DNA of 64,000 nt, taken from contig DASSVO010000038.1 of assembly GCA_035706005.1 (NCBI GenBank), positions 1,192 to 65,191 of the forward strand, in the 5' to 3' direction. Source of the stretch: Gaiellaceae bacterium (lineage in GTDB: Bacteria; Actinomycetota; Thermoleophilia; Gaiellales; Gaiellaceae). Position numbers and translations under genes: made by a program. Position 1 is the stretch's first letter, and every line of letters starts with the position of its first letter. The notes below the pieces were generated by a model. That model was not told where the DNA came from, did no database searches, and worked only from the letters and a program-made list of their open reading frames with translations. This document shows positions 5,995 to 33,100 of this stretch, in pieces.

Positions 5995-6081
5995 GTGAAG
6001 GCACGGATTACCTTCCTGGCCGTCATCCTCGGCGCGGTTGCGCTCGCGCTGATCGTGGCCGACGGCACCGTCTGGCCCTAG
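5995..6081 (+). CDS. 28-aa signal-peptide-like small ORF (candidate pro-peptide)
   Basis: GTG 5995 lies 7 nt after AAAGGA. It translates (M)KARITFLAVILGAVALALIVADGTVWP and ends at TAG 6079-6081. An in-frame stop lies upstream at 5968. Too short for the ORF track. Confidence 0.35.
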   Translation: MKARITFLAVILGAVALALIVADGTVWP

Positions 6082-6099
6082 GCGTCCAGACAGATCGCA

Positions 6100-6129
6100 G
6101 GCGGCGGCGAGCAATTCGGCGCCGCCGCC
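6100..6129 (+). terminator. 10-bp GC hairpin between the small ORF and the regulator
   Basis: GGCGGCGGCG (6100-6109) / CGCCGCCGCC (6120-6129), followed by GCTCTCCTT. Confidence 0.35.
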
Positions 6130-6174
6130 GCTCTCCTTGAGGACCGACTGTGCTGACTGTAGTCTCCAAGCGAG

Positions 6175-7467
6175 ATGCCGAGGCGACCCTCAACGCACGT
6201 CGACAGTGCGGCTGCAGTCGGGGAGCGGCTTGCGGCAGCGAGGAACGCTGCGGGGCTGACGCAGCGCCAGCTTTCGTTCCCCGGCTGCACTGCGGCCTAC
6301 ATCTCGCGGATCGAGGCGGGAGCCCGAATTCCCTCGTACCAGATCCTGCGCGAGTTCGGAAAGCGGCTCGGTGTCAGTGCGGACTACCTGGCGACCGGCG
6401 TCGAGGAGGCCGGGCTCGTGGACGAGCTGTTCGAGGCGGAGGTCGCGCTTCGGCTCGACGACCTCGAGCAGGCGGAGCGTCTGTATCGACGCCTCCGGCG
6501 GAGCTCCGAGCCCGACGCGGTCGCCGTCGCGCAGGCCGACGCGGGCCTCGGGCAAGTCGCGTTGCGCCGCGGAGAGACGAGCGAGGCTATCGACCTGCTC
6601 GAGGCAGCGTCTGCAGCCGCGCTCCCGGCTCGCGAGGCGGAGACGGTGGCCGAGGCGCTGGGCAGGGCGTATGCAGCGCAAGGGCGCTTCGCGGACGCGT
6701 TCGACGTCTTCGGCCGCACCCTCGACTCGGCCAAGGAGCGGAAGGACCGCATGCTGATGCTCCGCTTCAGTGTGCTGCTCGCAAACGCCCTGATCGACTG
6801 CGGCCGCTTCGACCATGCCGAGGAGGTGCTCGGCGACGCGGTCGATCTCGCGCGGCGGACCCTCGACCCGAGGCTCAGGGCGGATCTGTACTGGTCGCAG
6901 TCGCGCCTCTACTCCTCCGAGGGGAGCCCCGATCTCGCTGCCCGGTACGCGCAGCTGACGATCTCGACGCTCCAGGACACCGAGCACACGGTGCAGGCCG
7001 CGCGCGCGCTCTTGCTCCTGGCGCAGATCGAGAACGACCGCGACCACGCGCAGGAGGCGCTCGACCTTCTCGAGGAGGGGGAACCGGCAATCCGAGCGGC
7101 GGGGAGCGCCGCGGACCGGGCGATGGTCGTGTTCGAACGCGCCCGCGCGCTCGAGGGCCTCGGCGAGGCCGAGGAGGCAGCGAGCCTCGTGCTCGGCTCG
7201 GTCGCTGCGCTTGCAGAAGCATCCCCGGTCACCGCCGCTCGCGGCTACGCCGGCGCGGCCGGCTTCTTCCGCTCGCGCGGAGACGACGCCAAGGCGCTGG
7301 AGCTCTACGAGCTCGCGGCCGAGCAGTTCCCCGCGCGCGACCGGCACCTCGCGGACGTCCTGACCGCGATGGCGGAGATCCACGAGGCGCGCGGCGACAC
7401 GGCGGAGGCGCTGCGCCTGCTCAAATCCGCGATGGCCGCGAGAAGCGGCTTGCGCAGCGACGAGTAG
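6175..7467 (+). CDS. HTH-XRE + TPR transcriptional regulator
   Basis: 430 aa. N-terminal GERLAAARNAAGLTQRQLS...YISRIEAGARIPS is an XRE-type HTH. The remainder is Ala/Leu/Glu-rich TPR-like repeats. Paralogue of 21406..22755. Confidence 0.85.
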   Translation: MPRRPSTHVDSAAAVGERLAAARNAAGLTQRQLSFPGCTAAYISRIEAGARIPSYQILREFGKRLGVSADYLATGVEEAGLVDELFEAEVALRLDDLEQAERLYRRLRRSSEPDAVAVAQADAGLGQVALRRGETSEAIDLLEAASAAALPAREAETVAEALGRAYAAQGRFADAFDVFGRTLDSAKERKDRMLMLRFSVLLANALIDCGRFDHAEEVLGDAVDLARRTLDPRLRADLYWSQSRLYSSEGSPDLAARYAQLTISTLQDTEHTVQAARALLLLAQIENDRDHAQEALDLLEEGEPAIRAAGSAADRAMVVFERARALEGLGEAEEAASLVLGSVAALAEASPVTAARGYAGAAGFFRSRGDDAKALELYELAAEQFPARDRHLADVLTAMAEIHEARGDTAEALRLLKSAMAARSGLRSDE

Positions 7468-8736: not shown

Positions 8737-9261
8737 TCAGCCCTCCCTGTGCTTCAGGTCGCCCTCGCGCTGCTGCGCCTCGGCAAGCGTCAGCCGTCCC
8801 GAGCAGACCTCGTCGTTGAGCTCGTTCTCGATCCTGTCCACGTCGGCCGCACGCGGGTAGGGCTCCGGCCAGAGGTTACGCGGGTCGGTCGGGTGGCCGC
8901 CGAGCTCGAGGCTGATCAGGTGATCCTCCTGGTAGTCGGAGAGCGAGCCCGTCTCTCGGTACTGGCGCATCTGCTTCCGCTTCAGGTCGTTCGTGTACGA
9001 GGTCGGCGGGCGGATCGTCGACGTCCAGCCGTGACGGCAGATCGTGGAGCGGATGTTCGCCTGCGTCACGTCCGGATTGAGGACGCCCGGCGTGCGCACC
9101 GGATCGGCGAGGATCGCGGGCTTCGCGCGCGCATGGCCGCGCGTCAGCACGAGCACGACGGCCGCGACGAGCAGCAGTCCGATGAGGAAGTCGACCGGGG
9201 TGAGCGGCCTCGTCACCCGGGCGACGGTAGGTCGCCCGCCGAGACGCCGCAAGACGCTCAT
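8737..9261 (-). CDS. Membrane-anchored HNH-nuclease-like protein
   Basis: Starts MSVLRRLGG at 9261 (in frame), followed by one TM helix. The C-terminal block reads YQEDHLISLELGGHPTDPRNLWPEP...DEVCSG. Confidence 0.6.
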   Translation of the reverse strand: MSVLRRLGGRPTVARVTRPLTPVDFLIGLLLVAAVVLVLTRGHARAKPAILADPVRTPGVLNPDVTQANIRSTICRHGWTSTIRPPTSYTNDLKRKQMRQYRETGSLSDYQEDHLISLELGGHPTDPRNLWPEPYPRAADVDRIENELNDEVCSGRLTLAEAQQREGDLKHREG

Positions 9262-9297
9262 CGAGCCGTGTCCAGGCGAGGCAGTACGCTCGCGGAC

Positions 9298-10143
9298 ATG
9301 GTCGAGCTGGTCGTTCGCCCCCGCGGTCCGTACTCGCTCGCGCTCTCGGCGCGCCTCGCCGGCGACGCAACGCGCCGGATGCGGGAGGGGCTCGTCACCG
9401 CCCGCTGCGGCGGCGGCGTGGCCTGCGCATGGCAGTCGCCGGACGGCACGGTGACGATCAGATCCGAGTCCCGGGCTGCAGCGGAGAAGCTGCGCTGGAT
9501 GCTCGCGGTCGACGACGACCACTCCGAGTTCCTGCGGCGCTTCGCCGACGACCCGCTGCTCGGCCGCGCCTCCAAGCACCTACGCGGCCTACGGCCGGTG
9601 CGGACGGCGACCGTCGCGCAGGCTCTCCTGCGTGCAGTCTGCGGGCAGCTCGTCGACTGGAAGACGGGACGAAGTCTCGAACGACGTGTGATCCGGGCGC
9701 TCGCGCCGGCCGACGAAGCCGGGCTCAGCGAGGCGCCGTCCTGCACCGCCCTCGCGGCCGTGGCGCCCTTCGAGCTGAGGCGTCTCGGTCTGCACGAGCG
9801 GCGTGGTGCGGCCGTCGTCCGCCTCTGCCGCGGCCTCGAGCTCGAGCGCCTCCACGAGCTGCCGACCGATGCCGTGGTCCGCCGGCTCGAGCGAGAGCGC
9901 GGGCTCGGCCCGTGGTCCGCCGGTGTCGTCTGTCTCGAGGGACTGGGCCGCTACGAGCACGGCCTCGTCGGCGACCTCGGGCTCGTGAAGCTCCTGCGGG
10001 CGCTGCGCGGCCGGCCGGTGGAGGCCTGGGAGACGGCGGAGCTGCTCGAGCCGTACGGCGAGTGGGCAGGTATCGCGAGCGTCTATCTGCTCGCGGGCCT
10101 CGGCCGCGGCCTGATCCCGCTGCCCGCGGCGCGCGCCGCCTAG
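9298..10143 (+). CDS. DNA-3-methyladenine glycosylase II (AlkA-like, HhH-GPD)
   Basis: ATG 9298 (MVELVVRPRGPYSL). Contains GLGPWSAGVVCLEGLGRYEHGLVGDLGLVKL. The upstream part of track ORF 8749..10143 is junk. Confidence 0.75.
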   Translation: MVELVVRPRGPYSLALSARLAGDATRRMREGLVTARCGGGVACAWQSPDGTVTIRSESRAAAEKLRWMLAVDDDHSEFLRRFADDPLLGRASKHLRGLRPVRTATVAQALLRAVCGQLVDWKTGRSLERRVIRALAPADEAGLSEAPSCTALAAVAPFELRRLGLHERRGAAVVRLCRGLELERLHELPTDAVVRRLERERGLGPWSAGVVCLEGLGRYEHGLVGDLGLVKLLRALRGRPVEAWETAELLEPYGEWAGIASVYLLAGLGRGLIPLPAARAA

Positions 10144-21275: not shown

Positions 21276-21383
21276 CTAGAAACCGCCCCCGCTGCTCATT
21301 CCGAAGCCGGGGTGACCGCAGGCCAGGATGAAGGCGAAGAGCGACGCGATGAACAAGAGAGAGATGAGCCGTGCTTTCGTCAA
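21276..21383 (-). CDS. 35-aa lipobox-like small secreted peptide ORF
   Basis: TTG 21383 lies 7 nt after GGAGG (the SD region reads AAAGGAGGTGAC) and 22 nt after the regulator stop. It translates (M)TKARLISLLFIASLFAFILAC|GHPGFGMSSGGGF. It is the 3' part of track ORF 21276..21461. Confidence 0.45.
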   Translation of the reverse strand: MTKARLISLLFIASLFAFILACGHPGFGMSSGGGF

Positions 21384-21405
21384 GTTGTCACCTCCTTTCC
21401 GGTGT

Positions 21406-22755
21406 CTAGAAGCGGACGTCCTGAAGTGCCTCTGCAGCCCTGCGATAGAGCTCGGCTGCACGTGCGTGATCCCCCTGGCGGGCAGCGAGGTCGCCGCGCG
21501 CCATCCAGGCTGCGGCGCGGTGACTGCCTGACCCCAGCGTGCCGAAGCAGGCTTCGGCGTCGCGGAACGCAGCCTCGGCCTCGTCGAGCCGGTCTTGCTC
21601 GAGCAGTGCCCGGCCGAGCACGAGCTGCGCGTTTCCCATCTCGTCGACGTAGTCGACCCGGCCGTCGAGCAGCTCGAGCGCGTGACGCGCCTGCTCCTCT
21701 GCCTGATCGACGTTGCCCGTGCGCAGATGAACCTGCGCGAGGGACGAGACGGCGCGCCCGGCGTCGGCGTCCTGGCCGGCCTCGAGCGCGATCGAGAACG
21801 CCTCCTTGAGCAGCTCGACGGCGTCCTCCGTGTTCCCGAGCAGGAAGTTGAGTCCGCCGAGGTTGTTAGTCAGCTGCCCGACGTGGACGCGGTCGGCGAG
21901 CGCCGCGTACGCCTCGCGGGCCCGCTCCGCGTAGTTGCGCGCGAGCACCCAGCGGCCCTCGCGGTCGGCGACGAGCGAAGCCTGGAAGTAGGCGGCGCCG
22001 ACGGTGCGGAGGTCGTCGACGGCGTGGGCAAGCTCGAGCGCACGCTCCACGTCCTCCTTCGCCGCCTCGTAGTCGCGCTGGATGAGCCAGCAGCGGGCGC
22101 GCCAGGAGAGGATGTTCGCCTTCAGCGCATCGCACGGCAGGCCCGAGCGCTCCGCGAGCGTGAACGCCTCGTTGAGCAGGCCCAGCGCGGTCTGGATGCT
22201 GTTGAGCTGGACGCGGCAGCCGCCGAGCCGGAGCAGCACGTCCGCCCGCTCGACGTCGGAGAATGCCTCGGCCTCCGAGATCGCGCGCGCCTCGTTGAGG
22301 AGCACGAGGGCGGTGCGGTGCTGGCCGATGCGCATCTTCGCGAGCCCGGCCCCGACCAACGCGCGCACCTGCAGCTCGGGCACCCCGGTCGCGCGGGCAG
22401 CCGCGGGGAGCGGCTCGAACGCATCCGCCGCCTCCTCGTCCTCCTGCGCCTCGTACAACGCCTCGGCACGCGTAAGGGCCCCTTCGAGCCTGGCGCGCTC
22501 GTCGGTCGCAACGCCGTTCGCGAGAAAGCCTGCGTCGACTCCGAGACGGCCGGCGAGCCACTTGATCGTCTCCGCGGTCGGCCGCGTCTTGCCGCGCTCG
22601 ATCTGCGAGACGTATTCCTTGGAGAAGCGATCGCCGGCGAGCTCGCTCTGCGTCAGCCCGGCGGCAACGCGCAGCTGGCGAAGCCGTTCACCGAGGCGAA
22701 CGCCCTCGGGGCTGGTCCTGCGAGTGGTGCGGCTGGCTGTCTCTCGGATCGGCAT
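21406..22755 (-). CDS. HTH-XRE + TPR transcriptional regulator
   Basis: 449 aa. LGERLRQLRVAAGLTQSELA...YVSQIERGKTRPT is an XRE-type HTH, followed by multiple TPR-like repeats. Confidence 0.85.
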   Translation of the reverse strand: MPIRETASRTTRRTSPEGVRLGERLRQLRVAAGLTQSELAGDRFSKEYVSQIERGKTRPTAETIKWLAGRLGVDAGFLANGVATDERARLEGALTRAEALYEAQEDEEAADAFEPLPAAARATGVPELQVRALVGAGLAKMRIGQHRTALVLLNEARAISEAEAFSDVERADVLLRLGGCRVQLNSIQTALGLLNEAFTLAERSGLPCDALKANILSWRARCWLIQRDYEAAKEDVERALELAHAVDDLRTVGAAYFQASLVADREGRWVLARNYAERAREAYAALADRVHVGQLTNNLGGLNFLLGNTEDAVELLKEAFSIALEAGQDADAGRAVSSLAQVHLRTGNVDQAEEQARHALELLDGRVDYVDEMGNAQLVLGRALLEQDRLDEAEAAFRDAEACFGTLGSGSHRAAAWMARGDLAARQGDHARAAELYRRAAEALQDVRF

Positions 22756-22887
22756 GTCTCGGCGCGCCTAGTCAAGCGCATACTTCACTGAAGCGCAAGT
22801 TCAGGGGCTTGAACATCCCCCATTCGAGCGTATCCATCGGGAAAGTCGGTCAACCATGCGAACTGCACAATCACTTGACCGAGCTAC

Positions 22888-22916
22888 TTGACGAGTGCCG
22901 CAACCGCTCCTATAGT
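22888..22916 (+). promoter_or_regulatory. Near-consensus sigma-70 promoter (TTGACG-17 nt-TATAGT)
   Basis: -35 box at 22888-22893 and -10 box at 22911-22916 with an exact 17-nt spacer. This stands out in a 70% GC background. Confidence 0.5.
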
Positions 22917-22920
22917 GAGC

Positions 22921-23085
22921 GCACCTTGCAACCAGGCCGGACGCCAGGCCGAGGTTCGCAGGGGGTGCGCCGGGGCTCCCGGTAAGGACGGAAGCGGATG
23001 GGCCGCAGATCCGCCTCCACAATCCCGCCGAGAGTGGCGCACCTCTCGAGAAGGCCCCGGAGCCGCAGCCGGGGCCTTTTCTTTT
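22921..23085 (+). ncRNA. Candidate orphan small RNA (about 165 nt, family unknown)
   Basis: Bounded by the promoter above and an intrinsic terminator. Predicted helices are GGTGCGCC (22964-22971) / GGCGCACC (23036-23043) and GGAAGCGGAT (22990-22999) / ATCCGCCTCC (23009-23018). There is no credible ORF and no downstream plus-strand gene. Confidence 0.4.
23053..23085 (+). terminator. Intrinsic terminator
   Basis: GGCCCCGG (23053-23060), an 8-nt loop, CCGGGGCC (23069-23076), then TTTTCTTTT. Confidence 0.65.
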
Positions 23086-23220
23086 GGGCGCCTCGCCCGC
23101 TTCGCTTGCCCGGGCGCGCGCGCTTCGCGCGCGGGCGCGGGCTGCGCTGTGCTTTCCGCTCGCGCCGTGTGCCGCGCCCCGCGCATGTCGGTGCGCGGCA
23201 CGGAGCGGCGAAGCTCTAGC

Positions 23221-30924: not shown

Positions 30925-31806
30925 TCAGGCCGCGTTGTCCGCCTTCGCAGCGCTCGCCGCGGCGGCCCAGCGCGGATCGTGGCGACGGATGCGATCCGGC
31001 TCGCGCCCGCGCGCCTCGGCGAGCTCGACCGTCAACCGCTGGAAGAGCACGATGTCGACGACCGGGTGCCGCGTCGGCAGGAGGTCGACCTCGCAGCCGA
31101 GCTCGCGCAGCGCCGCCGCCGCCGCGGCCGCCCGCTCGCCCGCCAGGCCTTCGCCCTCGAGGACGAACGCGCGGACGGATTCGTCGACCGCGGCGAGGTA
31201 GCCGTGGAGAAGCTGCTCCGTCTCGTACGCCTCCGCCGCGACCCAGGCTCCTTCGCGCAGCTTCAGCACCGCCTCGTGTGCGGTCGCCAGCTGGCGTCCC
31301 GCGCCGGCCACGAGGAACCGCTCCTGCTCCCCCACTTCCGGCACGGGCGCCGTCAGGGCATCTGCGACGGCCCCGGGCAGCCACGAGACATCCTCTCCGA
31401 GCAGGGCGGCGATCGCCGCCACCGCGCATGTGTAGCTCGCGGTGTGGCACCAGCTCGCCTCGATCTCCGGCGTGCAGACGACGACCTCGTCGCACAGCTC
31501 CGCAATCGGCCCGTCCGCGCGCCCGGTGACGAGCCACCGCGCCCCGCGCCACGCGCGCGCCGCCTCGAGCGTCAGCGGCGTCTCGCCCTCGTGCGAAACG
31601 AGGACGAGCAGGTCGGCGTCGCGCCCGGGGCGCAGCGCAAGCTCGAGCGCCTGCGCTGCGTCGCCACCGGTCATGGCCGCGTGGAACGAGGTTCCGCAGC
31701 CGGTGAAGAGGAGCCGCGCGCCGTCGGGGAAGCGCCGGTCCGTCGGCACCTGCGCCAGCCATTCCGGTTGCGCAGCGATCGCCCGCCTGGTCTCCTCTCC
31801 ATACAC
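30925..31806 (-). CDS. SIS-domain sugar-phosphate isomerase/aminotransferase-like protein
   Basis: GTG 31806 (VYGEETRRAIAAQPEWL) avoids overlap with the divergent peptidase gene. Contains FTGCGTSFHAA and VSHEGET. The track start at 31866 is also possible. Confidence 0.65.
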   Translation of the reverse strand: MYGEETRRAIAAQPEWLAQVPTDRRFPDGARLLFTGCGTSFHAAMTGGDAAQALELALRPGRDADLLVLVSHEGETPLTLEAARAWRGARWLVTGRADGPIAELCDEVVVCTPEIEASWCHTASYTCAVAAIAALLGEDVSWLPGAVADALTAPVPEVGEQERFLVAGAGRQLATAHEAVLKLREGAWVAAEAYETEQLLHGYLAAVDESVRAFVLEGEGLAGERAAAAAAALRELGCEVDLLPTRHPVVDIVLFQRLTVELAEARGREPDRIRRHDPRWAAAASAAKADNAA

Positions 31807-31834
31807 GAGCGGTAGGTCTATACGATCGGGCGGC

Positions 31835-33100
31835 GTGACGATCTTCGAACGACACACGCTCGACAACGGTCTGCGCGTCCTGACGGCCGACCTTCCGCAC
31901 GCGCAGTCGGTCGCGGTGATGGTGATGCTCGCCGCCGGCTCCCGCTACGAGACCGCGGAGACGAGCGGGATCGCGCATTTCGCCGAGCACATGTTCTTCA
32001 AGGGGACCGAGCGGCGGCCGAGCGCCCGCCAGATCGCGGGCGAGATCGACGCGATCGGCGGTGAGTTCAACGCCTTCACCGGCAAGGAGAACACGACGTA
32101 CTACGTCAAGTGCGCTGCCGATCACCGTGACATCGCGCTCGACGTCGTCGTCGACATGCTGCGCAACTCCCGCTTCGCCGAGGAGGAGATCGCGCGGGAG
32201 AAGGGCGTGATCATCGAGGAGATGAACATGTACTTCGACACGCCGCGCGATTTCATCGGCGGCGTCTACGAGGAGCTCCTCTGGGGAGACCAGCCTCTGG
32301 GCTGGGACATCATCGGCCGCAAGGAGACGATCCACGACGCGACCCGGGACACGTTCCTGGGCTACCTCGGCCGTTGGTACAAGCCCTCGCGGATGGTGCT
32401 CGGCGTCGCAGGCCGGATCGGCGACGGCCTACTCGAGCGCGCGCAGGAGCTGCTCGGCGACCTCGACGACGCCGAAACGGGCGAGCCGGAGCCCGCGGCT
32501 CCGTATGCGAACGGCCGCGTGCGCGTGTTCACGAAGCAGTCGGAGCAGGCGCACGTCTCCCTCGGCGTGCACAGCCGGCCGCTCGACCATCCGGACCGCT
32601 ACGCCATCCAGCTCCTCGCGACCGCTCTCGGAGGCGGGATGTCCTCGCGCCTCTTCACCGAGGTCCGCGAACGGCGCGGTCTCGCCTACTACGTCTACGG
32701 GCTCAACCACAGCTACACGGACGCCGGCACGCTCTACTCGCAGGCAGGCGTGGACATCACCAGGATCGACGACGCGGTGTCGACGATCGCGGCCGAGCTG
32801 CGCAAGATCGCGGCCGAGCCGCTCCCGGCCGAGGAGCTCGAGAAGGCACGCAATTTCGCGAAGGGGCGCTTCGTCCTTCAGCTCGAGAGCCCGCAGGGGC
32901 TCATGATGTTCGGGCTGCGGAAGGAAGTGCTCGAGCGGAAGCTTCCCGATCCGGAAGAGGTGGTCCGCGGGCTCGACGCCGTGACGAGCGACGACGTCGC
33001 CCGCGTCGCGTCCGAGCTCATCGCGCCCGATCGTCTCCGGCTCGCGGTGATCGGGCCCTTCGACGACGCCTCTCGCTTCGAAGCGCTCCTCGACGGCTAG
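31835..33100 (+). CDS. M16 (pitrilysin/insulinase) family zinc peptidase
   Basis: GTG 31835 is in frame. Contains the HFAEH zinc motif (GIAHFAEHMFFKGT). Confidence 0.85.
   Translation: MTIFERHTLDNGLRVLTADLPHAQSVAVMVMLAAGSRYETAETSGIAHFAEHMFFKGTERRPSARQIAGEIDAIGGEFNAFTGKENTTYYVKCAADHRDIALDVVVDMLRNSRFAEEEIAREKGVIIEEMNMYFDTPRDFIGGVYEELLWGDQPLGWDIIGRKETIHDATRDTFLGYLGRWYKPSRMVLGVAGRIGDGLLERAQELLGDLDDAETGEPEPAAPYANGRVRVFTKQSEQAHVSLGVHSRPLDHPDRYAIQLLATALGGGMSSRLFTEVRERRGLAYYVYGLNHSYTDAGTLYSQAGVDITRIDDAVSTIAAELRKIAAEPLPAEELEKARNFAKGRFVLQLESPQGLMMFGLRKEVLERKLPDPEEVVRGLDAVTSDDVARVASELIAPDRLRLAVIGPFDDASRFEALLDG

Follow-up and report, generated by a model that had tools for sequence, protein, structure and literature searches.

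Peptide quorum sensing through cytoplasmic receptors, as carried out by RRNPP systems (Rap, Rgg, NprR, PlcR, PrgX, AimR), is treated in the literature as a Firmicutes speciality, and as far as the searchable literature shows these systems have been described only for Firmicutes and their mobile elements (PMC10075063, PMC9765709, PMC13220807). In contrast, Actinomycetota are said to communicate with small molecules such as butyrolactones (PMC10075063; PMC13220807). The mature RRNPP peptides, including those of PapR, Phr, AimP, and SHP, come from the C-terminus of a pro-peptide. The published RRNPP signature, as formalized in RRNPP_detector, consists of a pro-peptide of 10-100 aa, a Sec/SPI export tag or SHP-like export by PptAB, a receptor of 250-500 aa, tetratricopeptide (TPR) repeats detectable by HMMs, and receptor and pro-peptide genes that are direct neighbours separated by -60 to 400 bp (PMC10075063). 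An older question in actinobacterial biology concerns Streptomyces, which reportedly needs the BldK oligopeptide permease to import an extracellular signal whose gene and receptor were never identified (Nodwell et al. 1996 and 1998, as listed in PMC11303876). Against this background, a locus resembling a peptide-signalling cassette was examined in a 64,000-nt stretch of DNA (hereafter the window) from a Gaiellaceae bacterium (Thermoleophilia, Actinomycetota; assembly GCA_035706005.1, contig DASSVO010000038.1, positions 1,192 to 65,191).

The initial annotation of this locus described an XRE-HTH and TPR regulator followed by a 35-aa ORF for a secreted peptide, and this observation was confirmed. 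Both genes lie on the minus strand. The regulator (regulator 1; 21406-22755) extends from an ATG at 22755 to a TAG at 21408-21406 and encodes 449 aa. Pfam searches place HTH_31 (1.5e-11) and HTH_3 at residues 20-76 and TPR_12 (1.6e-24), TPR_2 (4.2e-18), TPR_1, TPR_16, and TPR_MalT over residues ~90-447. The AlphaFold2 model, with a mean pLDDT of 90, is all-helical and predicts a five-helix XRE-type HTH (residues ~16-80) followed by ~18 TPR helices, corresponding to about nine repeats arranged in a superhelix, without a membrane segment. Thousands of orthologues were found in Gaiellaceae metagenome-assembled genomes (MAGs) and soil metagenomes. All close relatives are Gaiellaceae, Thermoleophilia, or Actinomycetota MAGs, and none was found in the viral contigs of IMG/VR; one homologue comes from Nocardioides antri (P0468). 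The small ORF (small ORF 1; 21383-21276) begins with a TTG at 21383 and encodes the 35-aa peptide MTKARLISLLFIASLFAFILACGHPGFGMSSGGGF, a candidate pro-peptide in which MTKAR is followed by ~18 hydrophobic residues, a linker, and the C-terminal motif GMSSGGGF. Its Shine-Dalgarno (SD) sequence, AAAGGAGGTGAC, lies at 21398-21387 and the GGAGG core ends 7 nt before the TTG. The initial annotation had placed the SD 22 nt after the regulator stop; the 22 nt is instead the gap between the stop and the TTG, while the SD itself starts 7 nt after the stop.

Comparison of orthologous loci indicates that the small ORF is more than a chance reading frame. That it should be conserved beside orthologous regulators had been set beforehand as the key test, and it was found at the same place in 78 of 80 orthologous loci with regulator identities of 64-95%, the other two being contig ends. 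A stricter SD-anchored rule recovered it in 74 loci. The sequence GGAGGTGA(C) is conserved 6-9 nt before the start codon, and ATG, GTG, and TTG interchange at the same start position. Within the motif, Gly codons vary only at the third position and Ser switches between AGC and TCT, which shows selection at the level of the protein. Orthologues are called as genes by several annotation pipelines, although the exact peptide of the window is absent from the protein collection searched. Across the whole window, only two SD-preceded ORFs of 22-70 aa combine a basic N-terminus with at least 15 hydrophobic residues, and both sit next to an HTH-TPR gene. Four more distant loci (L084-L087), with regulator identities of 57.5, 55, 47, and 47%, retain a small SD-preceded ORF with a signal-peptide-like N-terminus, and macro-synteny (MFS, PAC2, helicase, NAD synthase) shows that these loci are orthologous. 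The most distant regulator clade, at 33% identity, lacks the ORF.

The peptides of these orthologues range from 23 to 64 aa and share a basic N-terminus, 16-20 hydrophobic residues, and a variable linker. The motif G[MFLP][SNC][DSNG]GG is present in 65 of the 74 peptides recovered by the strict rule. The C-terminal motif is constant within clades and differs between deep clades, with the forms GMSDGGGF, GMNDGGYW, GFFDGH.., GGWSWPDGL, and HGAPR... These comparisons run against the expectation, set out in the initial annotation, of a variable C-terminal tail, as it is the linker that varies while the tail carries the most conserved motif within clades. The lipobox-like ILA|C site that had been noted in the window peptide is likewise not a conserved feature, as L[AGS]-C occurs in only 23 of the 74 peptides. 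Export-type features were assessed by inspection of sequence only. Textbook AxA sites are present in L086 and L087 (AAA|K, ASA|S), whereas the -3/-1 site in module 1 (regulator 1 and small ORF 1) is poor (F/Y-L-A).

The regulator-peptide pair is a vertically inherited locus in a housekeeping neighbourhood, not a mobile or fast-evolving cassette, as regulator identity tracks that of the neighbouring MFS, SDR, and ABC1 genes. The ABC1 kinase gene was considered as a conserved downstream partner but is present in only 33 of 80 loci, so it is not part of the module. Two regulator copies assigned to one MAG (loci L052 and L070, CAVPQJ01) share the same MFS-TetR synteny, so that a mixed-strain bin is as likely as paralogy, and they were not used as evidence. 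Neither an ABC-transporter signature nor a Walker A motif occurs in any frame of the window, in agreement with the statement in the initial annotation that no Opp importer is present there; Opp genes are normally unlinked.

A second regulator-peptide pair lies on the plus strand of the same window, with the gene order inverted. Small ORF 2 (5995-6081) starts with GTG, is preceded by the SD sequence GAAAGGA, and encodes the 28-aa peptide MKARITFLAVILGAVALALIVADGTVWP, a candidate pro-peptide. It is followed after a 93-nt gap by regulator 2 (6175-7467), a 430-aa protein with Pfam HTH_31 and TPR_12 matches. Although BLASTP detects only the HTH as similar between the two regulators, profile-profile alignment with hhalign gives a probability of 99.6% and an E value of 5.8e-24 over 373 columns, identifying regulator 2 as a full-length, distant paralogue of regulator 1. 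The second peptide is conserved 80-100 nt upstream of regulator-2 orthologues in 20 metagenome loci, in the form MKAR, ~20 hydrophobic residues, and [VLA]A-DG..WP. In this family a -3/-1 small-residue site directly precedes the invariant DG, which predicts a product of 6-9 aa.

The region upstream of regulator 1 contains further conserved elements, whose regulatory functions are inferred only. An imperfect palindrome, GTGAAGT-AT-GCGCTTGAC (22771-22789, minus strand), lies just upstream of the regulator start and represents a candidate operator; its consensus in an alignment of 34 loci is GTGAAGC-AT-GCTTCAC. Farther upstream, between 22848 and 22892, are an invariant direct repeat, GTCAAGT-N6-GTCAAGTGAT (22892-22870, read on the minus strand), and a third TTGAC (22848-22853), which are candidate regulator binding sites and are also present in L084-L087. 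The first copy of the repeat is the -35 element of a divergent, sigma-70-like promoter, TTGACG-17-TATAGT (22888-22916, plus strand), which matches at 10 of 12 positions where 0.1 such occurrences are expected, and whose -35 and -10 elements are invariant while the spacer is variable in 39 loci. This promoter precedes a candidate sRNA of ~165 nt (22922-23090, plus strand; ends inferred). Two predicted hairpin loops of the sRNA both display GCCGCAG, and the second hairpin is the intrinsic terminator (23048-23081, followed by TTTTCTTTT). The sRNA sequence is conserved in all 80 loci at 72-94% nucleotide identity. RNAalifold predicted 33 pairs, 18-19 of which show compensatory changes, and 95.4% of cells were paired compared to 40-60% in slid controls, a value reached by 0 of 500 shuffles. 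No Rfam family was matched at E <= 1.

The interpretation offered by the initial annotation, an RRNPP-like signalling cassette, is partly supported, and the second, paralogous regulator-peptide pair in the same window strengthens the case. Peptide lengths of 35 and 28 aa, receptor lengths of 449 and 430 aa, HMM-detectable TPRs, and gaps of 22 and 93 nt all fall within the limits of the published signature, whereas the export tag rests on inspection of the sequence only. On the other hand, no specific relationship of the regulator to the TPR domain of any RRNPP subfamily (Rap, NprR, PlcR, Rgg, PrgX, or AimR) was detected in sequence or fold. Phmmer and profile searches of the PDB matched PlcR and ComR in the HTH only, while the TPR region matched LGN, KLC, and designed TPRs. 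No RRNPP model was among the NCBIfam hits, and a structural search of BFVD returned no AimR-like match. Foldseek ranked PlcR 39th, behind generic TPR proteins such as LGN and CTPR, although the PlcR-PapR7-DNA structure was the first match to the full HTH and TPR architecture and the top hits, LGN/Pins, are TPRs that bind extended peptides in the groove. One homologue is automatically named NprR by JGI, which is weak evidence.

The explanation that we tentatively favour, with a probability somewhat short of even, is a two-gene regulator-peptide module that works like an RRNPP cassette, as a plausible convergent analogue that is probably of independent origin and not a demonstrable family member by homology. 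In this view, the small ORF would be translated from its own strong SD, inserted or exported through its basic and hydrophobic N-terminus, and cleaved to release a short C-terminal peptide carrying the conserved motif, GMS(D/S)GGGF in this clade and DG..WP in the second module. At high concentration the peptide would be taken up and would bind the concave face of the TPR superhelix of the adjacent regulator, changing its activity at the GT[CG]AAG repeats and thereby controlling the divergent sRNA and the regulator-peptide operon itself. The comparative data establish the existence of the genes, protein-level selection on the peptide, adjacency maintained in two ancient paralogous modules and down to 47% regulator identity, the clade specificity of the C-terminal motif, the character of the regulator as a soluble HTH and TPR protein, and the conservation of the sRNA and repeats, while export, the cleavage site, release, re-import, binding to the TPR domain, and the regulatory targets are inferences from sequence, by analogy with known systems.

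The main competing explanation, less favoured but still possible, is that the small protein is a stable single-pass membrane or secreted micro-protein and not a diffusible signal, acting either as the regulated output of the HTH-TPR protein or as a membrane partner that modulates it or another envelope component in the manner of an MgrB- or AcrZ-like feedback peptide, with the TPR domain sensing something else, such as a metabolite or a protein. The hydrophobic segment is of membrane-spanning length and in module 1 looks as much like an anchor as a cleavable signal; the N-terminal MTKAR/MKAR is strongly conserved in both modules, unusually so for a signal-peptide n-region but as expected if the cytoplasmic end matters; and the near constancy of the C-terminal motif across a family, at a slowly evolving core locus, is unlike the pherotype diversification typical of many RRNPP systems. 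TPRs of the canonical TPR_12/AfsR/MalT type bind non-peptide ligands or proteins elsewhere, and the conserved adjacency is explained equally well by this reading. Nevertheless, classical cleavable signal peptides followed by quite different mature parts in orthologues at 47% identity are hard to reconcile with a conserved membrane-embedded function. Only 6-9 residues would remain outside in module 2, only about four cytoplasmic residues would be available to contact a cytoplasmic regulator, and clade-specific C-termini paired with diverging receptors fit a ligand-receptor pair better.

Other readings are less likely. The peptide of the window's own sub-clade could be a tiny lipoprotein, cleaved by signal peptidase II at ILA|C to leave a 14-residue lipid-anchored peptide, since FILAC fits the PROSITE-style lipobox rule and the L[AGS]-C sequence occurs mostly in the closest orthologues. 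However, the Cys is replaced by G, A, N, S, M, or K in most orthologues that keep every other feature and is absent from module 2 and the distant orthologues, so lipidation cannot be the conserved function, although it could be a clade-specific variation on either main model. A type I toxin-like membrane peptide, with the sRNA and/or the regulator as antitoxin or repressor, is very unlikely. While the ORF is short, hydrophobic, and single-helix, a conserved structured sRNA lies in the same locus, and XRE-HTH proteins are common antitoxins (weak HipB/HigA-type hits were found), the sRNA lies 1.5 kb away beyond the regulator and is not antisense to the ORF. The complement of its loop motif, CTGCGGC, lies after the ORF in the window but is present near it in only 13 of 74 loci, so that pairing of the loop with the peptide mRNA was rejected. 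The perfect, exposed SD is the opposite of the sequestered ribosome-binding sites of type I toxins, the locus is syntenic and vertically inherited across a family, no sRNA was noticed, without a dedicated search, next to module 2, and a 370-residue TPR sensor domain is not a feature of antitoxins. The possibility that the ORF arose by chance or is untranslated, which must be considered because high-GC genomes are full of spurious ORFs, is effectively refuted by its conservation, codon-level purifying selection, and an independent paralogous family.

A broader reading, possible but less probable than not, is that Gaiellales, among the most abundant uncultured soil Actinomycetota, use genetically encoded, exported oligopeptides sensed by cytoplasmic HTH-TPR receptors, with at least two orthogonal receptor-peptide channels per genome and the structured sRNA with repeated GCCGCAG loops as the direct regulatory output. 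This would be RRNPP-type quorum sensing evolved independently outside Firmicutes from AfsR/MalT-type TPR domains, a case of convergent assembly from a different TPR stock that would widen the phylogenetic range of this signalling logic. It would also provide synthesisable candidate signals (e.g., GMSDGGGF, GMNDGGYW, and DGIWPGVR, or fragments such as GMSSGGGF, CGHPGFGMSSGGGF, and DGTVWP) as possible growth or behaviour cues for organisms that are very abundant in soil and almost uncultured; a link to the BldK-imported signal of Streptomyces is speculative. Even if the small protein is a membrane or secreted micro-protein, the locus defines a new family of micro-proteins tied to a regulator and a new structured sRNA.

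Among described systems, NprR-NprX of the Bacillus cereus group is similar in receptor architecture and size class, with an N-terminal XRE HTH and about nine TPRs (NprR is ~420 aa), in the immediately downstream, co-directional gene for a pro-peptide of ~35-45 aa with an export-type N-terminus, and in its chromosomal location. It differs in phylum (Bacillota), in the lack of detectable TPR homology, and in the internal position of NprX, while the conserved part of the Gaiellaceae peptide is the extreme C-terminus; no evidence was found here for Opp import or a second, phosphatase-binding function. PlcR-PapR of the same group also combines an HTH-TPR receptor with a downstream co-directional small ORF, its active peptide is the C-terminal 7-8 residues of the pro-peptide, and it gave the best full-architecture structural match (3u3w_A; Foldseek E 3.7e-7, TMt 0.64 over the whole of PlcR, 280 columns). 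However, PlcR has five TPRs and 285 aa, and sequence similarity is confined to the HTH. The streptococcal Rgg-SHP and ComR-ComS systems share very short, hydrophobic peptides with a basic N-terminus and several paralogous receptor-peptide pairs per genome with variable gene order; their active part is the C-terminal 7-11 residues, often ending in aromatic or Gly residues, as is inferred for the peptides here. Rgg and ComR are ~285-320 aa with degenerate TPR-like repeats, and SHP export uses PptAB and Eep (PMC10075063). AimR-AimP-aimX, the arbitrium system of Bacillus phages, offers a parallel three-part logic of a TPR receptor with HTH, an adjacent small secreted pro-peptide whose C-terminal ~6 residues are the signal, and a noncoding RNA as the regulated output, although the sRNA considered here is divergent and upstream instead of downstream, its control by the receptor is only inferred, and the locus lies in a chromosomal housekeeping context and not in a phage. 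Small membrane feedback peptides of the MgrB and AcrZ type resemble the small ORF product as proteins of 30-50 aa with one N-terminal membrane helix and a short conserved extracytoplasmic tail, genetically tied to a regulator, but they act on membrane sensors or pumps, are not encoded next to a cytoplasmic TPR receptor, and show no sequence similarity, as the peptide had no Pfam or NCBIfam hit. The best family-level similarity of the C-terminal TPRs is to the actinobacterial AfsR/MalT-type (STAND/SARP) sensor domains (NCBIfam AfsR, E 3.8e-13 over residues 325-444; Pfam TPR_MalT, 45.8 bits against a cutoff of 45), which suggests that the receptor domain was recruited from the actinobacterial TPR pool. 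The regulator has no NB-ARC/ATPase or SARP domain; instead, a short XRE HTH is fused directly to the TPRs and a conserved small-peptide gene is attached, neither of which is a feature of AfsR or MalT.

Both genes of the regulator–peptide pair lie on the minus strand. The regulator (regulator 1) runs from an ATG at 22755 to the TAG at 21408-21406 and encodes 449 aa. It is followed by a small ORF that starts at a TTG at 21383, ends with the stop at 21276 and encodes the 35-aa sequence MTKARLISLLFIASLFAFILACGHPGFGMSSGGGF. The SD of the small ORF, AAAGGAGGTGAC, is located at 21398-21387, and its GGAGG core ends 7 nt before the TTG. The observation made in the initial annotation, that an XRE-HTH + TPR regulator is immediately followed by an ORF for a short secreted-type peptide, was upheld, although the distance of 22 nt that it had assigned to the SD is the gap between the regulator stop and the start codon of the small ORF. 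Pfam assigned HTH_31/HTH_3 to residues 20-76 of the regulator and several TPR families, including TPR_12 (1.6e-24) and TPR_MalT, to residues of about 90-447. An AlphaFold2 model built on 49 orthologues, with a mean pLDDT of 90, predicted a short helical HTH followed by about 18 helices of a TPR superhelix, in which only the first 19 residues are disordered and no membrane segment is present.

The regulator has thousands of close relatives, all of which come from Gaiellaceae, Thermoleophilia or Actinomycetota MAGs and soil metagenomes. Across 80 genome loci at 64-95% identity the neighborhood is stable and consists of an MFS transporter, TetR, the regulator, the small ORF, sometimes an ABC1 kinase (33/80), and then an SDR. 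Regulator identity tracks that of the neighboring housekeeping genes, and the wider window holds PAC2, CtaA, an AIR-synthase-like gene, NAD synthase and similar genes. This is a vertically inherited chromosomal locus rather than a mobile element, and no relatives were found in a search of viral contigs. Other genes of the window include an M16 (insulinase-type) zinc peptidase of 552 aa with an N-terminal extension of about 140 residues (31442-33100, plus strand), which lies 8.7 kb from the pair on the side of the regulator's start; enzymes of this family process small peptides in other systems, although a link to the pair would rest on this analogy alone. A 464-aa ORF at 8749-10143 (plus strand) has coding-like GC3 but matched no Pfam family at E <= 1e-5.

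The initial annotation had named conservation of a short signal-peptide ORF downstream of orthologous regulators as a test of its proposal, and such an ORF was found. In 78 of the 80 loci an ORF of 33-45 aa starts 10-45 nt after the regulator stop on the same strand, the two exceptions being contig ends, and a stricter SD-anchored call recovered 74 peptides. The SD GGAGGTGA and the start position are conserved, while the start codon itself alternates between TTG (29), GTG (26) and ATG (19). In the C-terminal motif the Gly codons vary only at the third base (GGA, GGC, GGG, GGT) and Ser switches between AGC and TCT, with mean entropies of 0.31, 0.36 and 0.89 at codon positions 1, 2 and 3, respectively. 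Orthologues are already called as "hypothetical protein" by several pipelines. The ORF is therefore a protein-coding gene under purifying selection. In four orthologous loci (L015, L050, L055 and L074) the small ORF is truncated or has lost the C-terminal motif (…PFGVTA; a degenerate hydrophobic part; a stop after the helix; …GLGEGKI), which could reflect MAG assembly errors or lineage-specific decay. A single MAG, CAVPQJ01, carries two copies of the module with different peptides (loci L052 and L070; …GGMSDGGFY and …GMNDGGYW), but both copies have the same MFS-TetR synteny, so that a mixed-population bin is as likely as a true duplication.

The peptides of this family begin with M-T-K-A-R, or a close variant, in 71 of 74 cases, followed by a hydrophobic run that is mostly 16-20 residues in length and a variable linker of 3-12 residues rich in H, G, P, K and R. 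The motif G-[MFL]-[SN]-D-G-G followed by GF, GL, YW or FW was found in 65 of 74. The lipobox-like ILA|C site described in the initial annotation exists in the window peptide, but L[AGS]-C occurs in only 23 of 74 peptides, so lipidation is not the conserved feature. Nor is the tail the variable part, as had been expected, since within Gaiellaceae it is the best-conserved part of the peptide.

An exhaustive search of representative sequences identified 236 clusters of regulator relatives at E < 1e-30. Orthologous loci, identified by shared synteny, at 57.5, 55, 47 and 47% regulator identity (L084-L087) still carry an SD-preceded small ORF right after the regulator, although the C-termini differ. 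The peptide of L084 ends in …GPLGFFDGPRGD and that of L085 is represented by MKPKLLLLLANLALLAAALGKGGWSWPDGL, whereas those of L086 and L087 are 60-64 aa in length, with textbook signal peptides (AAA|K, ASA|S), a Thr-rich spacer and a shared …HGAPR(M/R).. end. The most distant regulator clade (L081-L083, 33% identity) has different synteny, with a sortase upstream and a MarR gene downstream, and lacks a small hydrophobic ORF of this kind; in L083 a 91-aa SHOCT-domain protein overlaps the regulator stop instead. Among the loci that carry the ORF, the pattern is an export-type N-terminus that is always present, combined with a C-terminus that is constant within clades and different between them. 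Four relatives of about 389 aa (P0260, P0278, P0297 and P0303) keep the whole TPR region and the C-terminal ALQD..F motif but lack the XRE HTH, which recalls the split between Rap (no HTH) and NprR (HTH) in Firmicutes, although they could also be mis-called starts. One homologue, P0431 (45% identity to regulator 1), is automatically named "quorum sensing regulator NprR" by JGI, while all others are named "TPR repeat protein" or "helix-turn-helix transcriptional regulator".

Pfam annotation of the neighboring genes revealed a second XRE-HTH + TPR protein of 430 aa (regulator 2) at 6175-7467 on the plus strand. BLASTP against regulator 1 detected only the HTH, but profile–profile comparison with hhalign aligned 373 columns with a probability of 99.6% and E 5.8e-24, indicating that the two are ancient, full-length paralogues. 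Ninety-three nt upstream of regulator 2, on the same strand, lies a 28-aa ORF (5995-6081) that has its own SD and encodes MKARITFLAVILGAVALALIVADGTVWP, of the form MKAR...ADGTVWP. In metagenome orthologues of regulator 2 (51-77% identity) this ORF is conserved in 20 loci as MKAR, about 20 hydrophobic residues and [VLA]-A-D-G-x(0-3)-W-P-(G-x-x), again with third-position-biased variation. The small residues at -3/-1 directly before the invariant DG predict a released peptide of 6-9 residues. The interval between peptide 2 and regulator 2 (6082-6174, plus strand) contains a GC-rich hairpin, GGCGGCGGCG-AGCAATTCGG-CGCCGCCGCC, without a T-tract, which could be a partial terminator or attenuator that sets the peptide:regulator ratio. 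In the whole window only these two SD-preceded ORFs fit the format of a basic N-terminus plus at least 15 hydrophobic residues in 22-70 aa. The maintenance of adjacency in two paralogous lineages with opposite gene order is the strongest argument that regulator and peptide work together.

The 465-nt region upstream of regulator 1 contains a sigma-70-like promoter on the opposite strand (TTGACG-17-TATAGT at 22888-22916), a 10/12 match for which 0.1 would be expected, and about 130 nt further on there is a GC hairpin followed by TTTTCTTTT. Together these features (22888-23090, plus strand) define a structured candidate sRNA of about 165 nt with inferred transcript ends, divergent from regulator 1. 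The element is conserved in all 80 loci at 72-94% nt identity, and in an alignment of 39 loci the two promoter hexamers are invariant while the spacer is free. The consensus structure has 33 pairs, of which 18 or 19, in two separate analyses, show compensatory changes; 95.4% of cells are paired versus 40-60% in slid controls, and 0/500 shuffles reached the observed value. Two hairpin loops display the same GCCGCAG heptamer, and no Rfam family matched the element. On the regulator side (22771-22892) there is an invariant direct repeat, GTCAAGT-N6-GTCAAGTGAT, whose first copy is the sRNA -35, as well as a third TTGAC and a palindrome (GTGAAGC-AT-GCTTCAC consensus) next to the regulator start. 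The repeats and the sRNA, which has a third GCCGCAG hairpin in L086 and L087, are also present in the orthologues at 47-58% identity. The GT[CG]AAG sites are read here as candidate operators of the XRE-HTH regulator, although they might instead be stacked -35 boxes, and the sRNA is read as a candidate output; both assignments are inference only.

The interpretation offered in the initial annotation, an RRNPP-like peptide-signaling cassette, is supported in part. In the explanation that is tentatively favored, the small protein would be exported, and a short C-terminal peptide would be released, re-imported and bound by the TPR domain, whereupon binding would switch the HTH on the GT[CG]AAG sites and control the sRNA and the operon. 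The comparative data establish that the small ORF is a selected coding gene, that its adjacency to the regulator is maintained in two paralogous lineages, and that the structured element and the repeats are conserved, while export, release, re-import, binding and regulation of the proposed targets are inferred from sequence alone; no ABC transporter that might serve as an importer lies within the window. A somewhat less favored but possible alternative is that the product stays in the membrane or at the surface, as an output or a feedback micro-protein, and that the TPR domain senses something else. This alternative draws on the membrane-length hydrophobic stretch and poor cleavage site of module 1 (regulator 1 and its peptide), the conserved MTKAR N-terminus and the slow, family-wide conservation, but it is opposed by the cleavable signal peptides and unrelated mature parts in distant orthologues, and by the 6-9-residue predicted product of module 2. 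A type I toxin, a product that is solely a lipoprotein and a chance ORF are all unlikely readings. Against the toxin reading, the sRNA lies 1.5 kb from the peptide gene and is not antisense to it, and the complement of its loop motif is not conserved near the ORF (13 of 74 loci).

The searchable literature describes RRNPP systems only in Firmicutes and their mobile elements and states that Actinomycetota use small-molecule signals, and no report of such a cassette in Actinomycetota was found. The published operational signature of RRNPP systems has five criteria, namely a small pro-peptide, an export tag, a receptor of 250-500 aa, TPRs, and direct adjacency within -60 to 400 bp (PMC10075063). 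Four of these are satisfied outright, while a putative export tag was recognized by inspection of the sequence only. Membership by descent is not supported. Sequence and profile searches of the PDB matched PlcR and ComR only in the HTH, whereas the TPR part matched LGN/Pins, kinesin light chain and designed TPRs. Foldseek ranked generic TPRs first, with PlcR-PapR7-DNA at rank 39, although its E of 3.7e-7 and TMt of 0.64 over the whole of PlcR make it the first full-architecture match, and a search of BFVD showed no AimR-like match. The best family-level similarity of the C-terminal TPRs is to actinobacterial AfsR and MalT-type TPRs. The fair description is an RRNPP-like architecture assembled from a different TPR stock, which in size and layout is closest to NprR-NprX and PlcR-PapR, and which in having an RNA as its candidate output recalls AimR-AimP-aimX.
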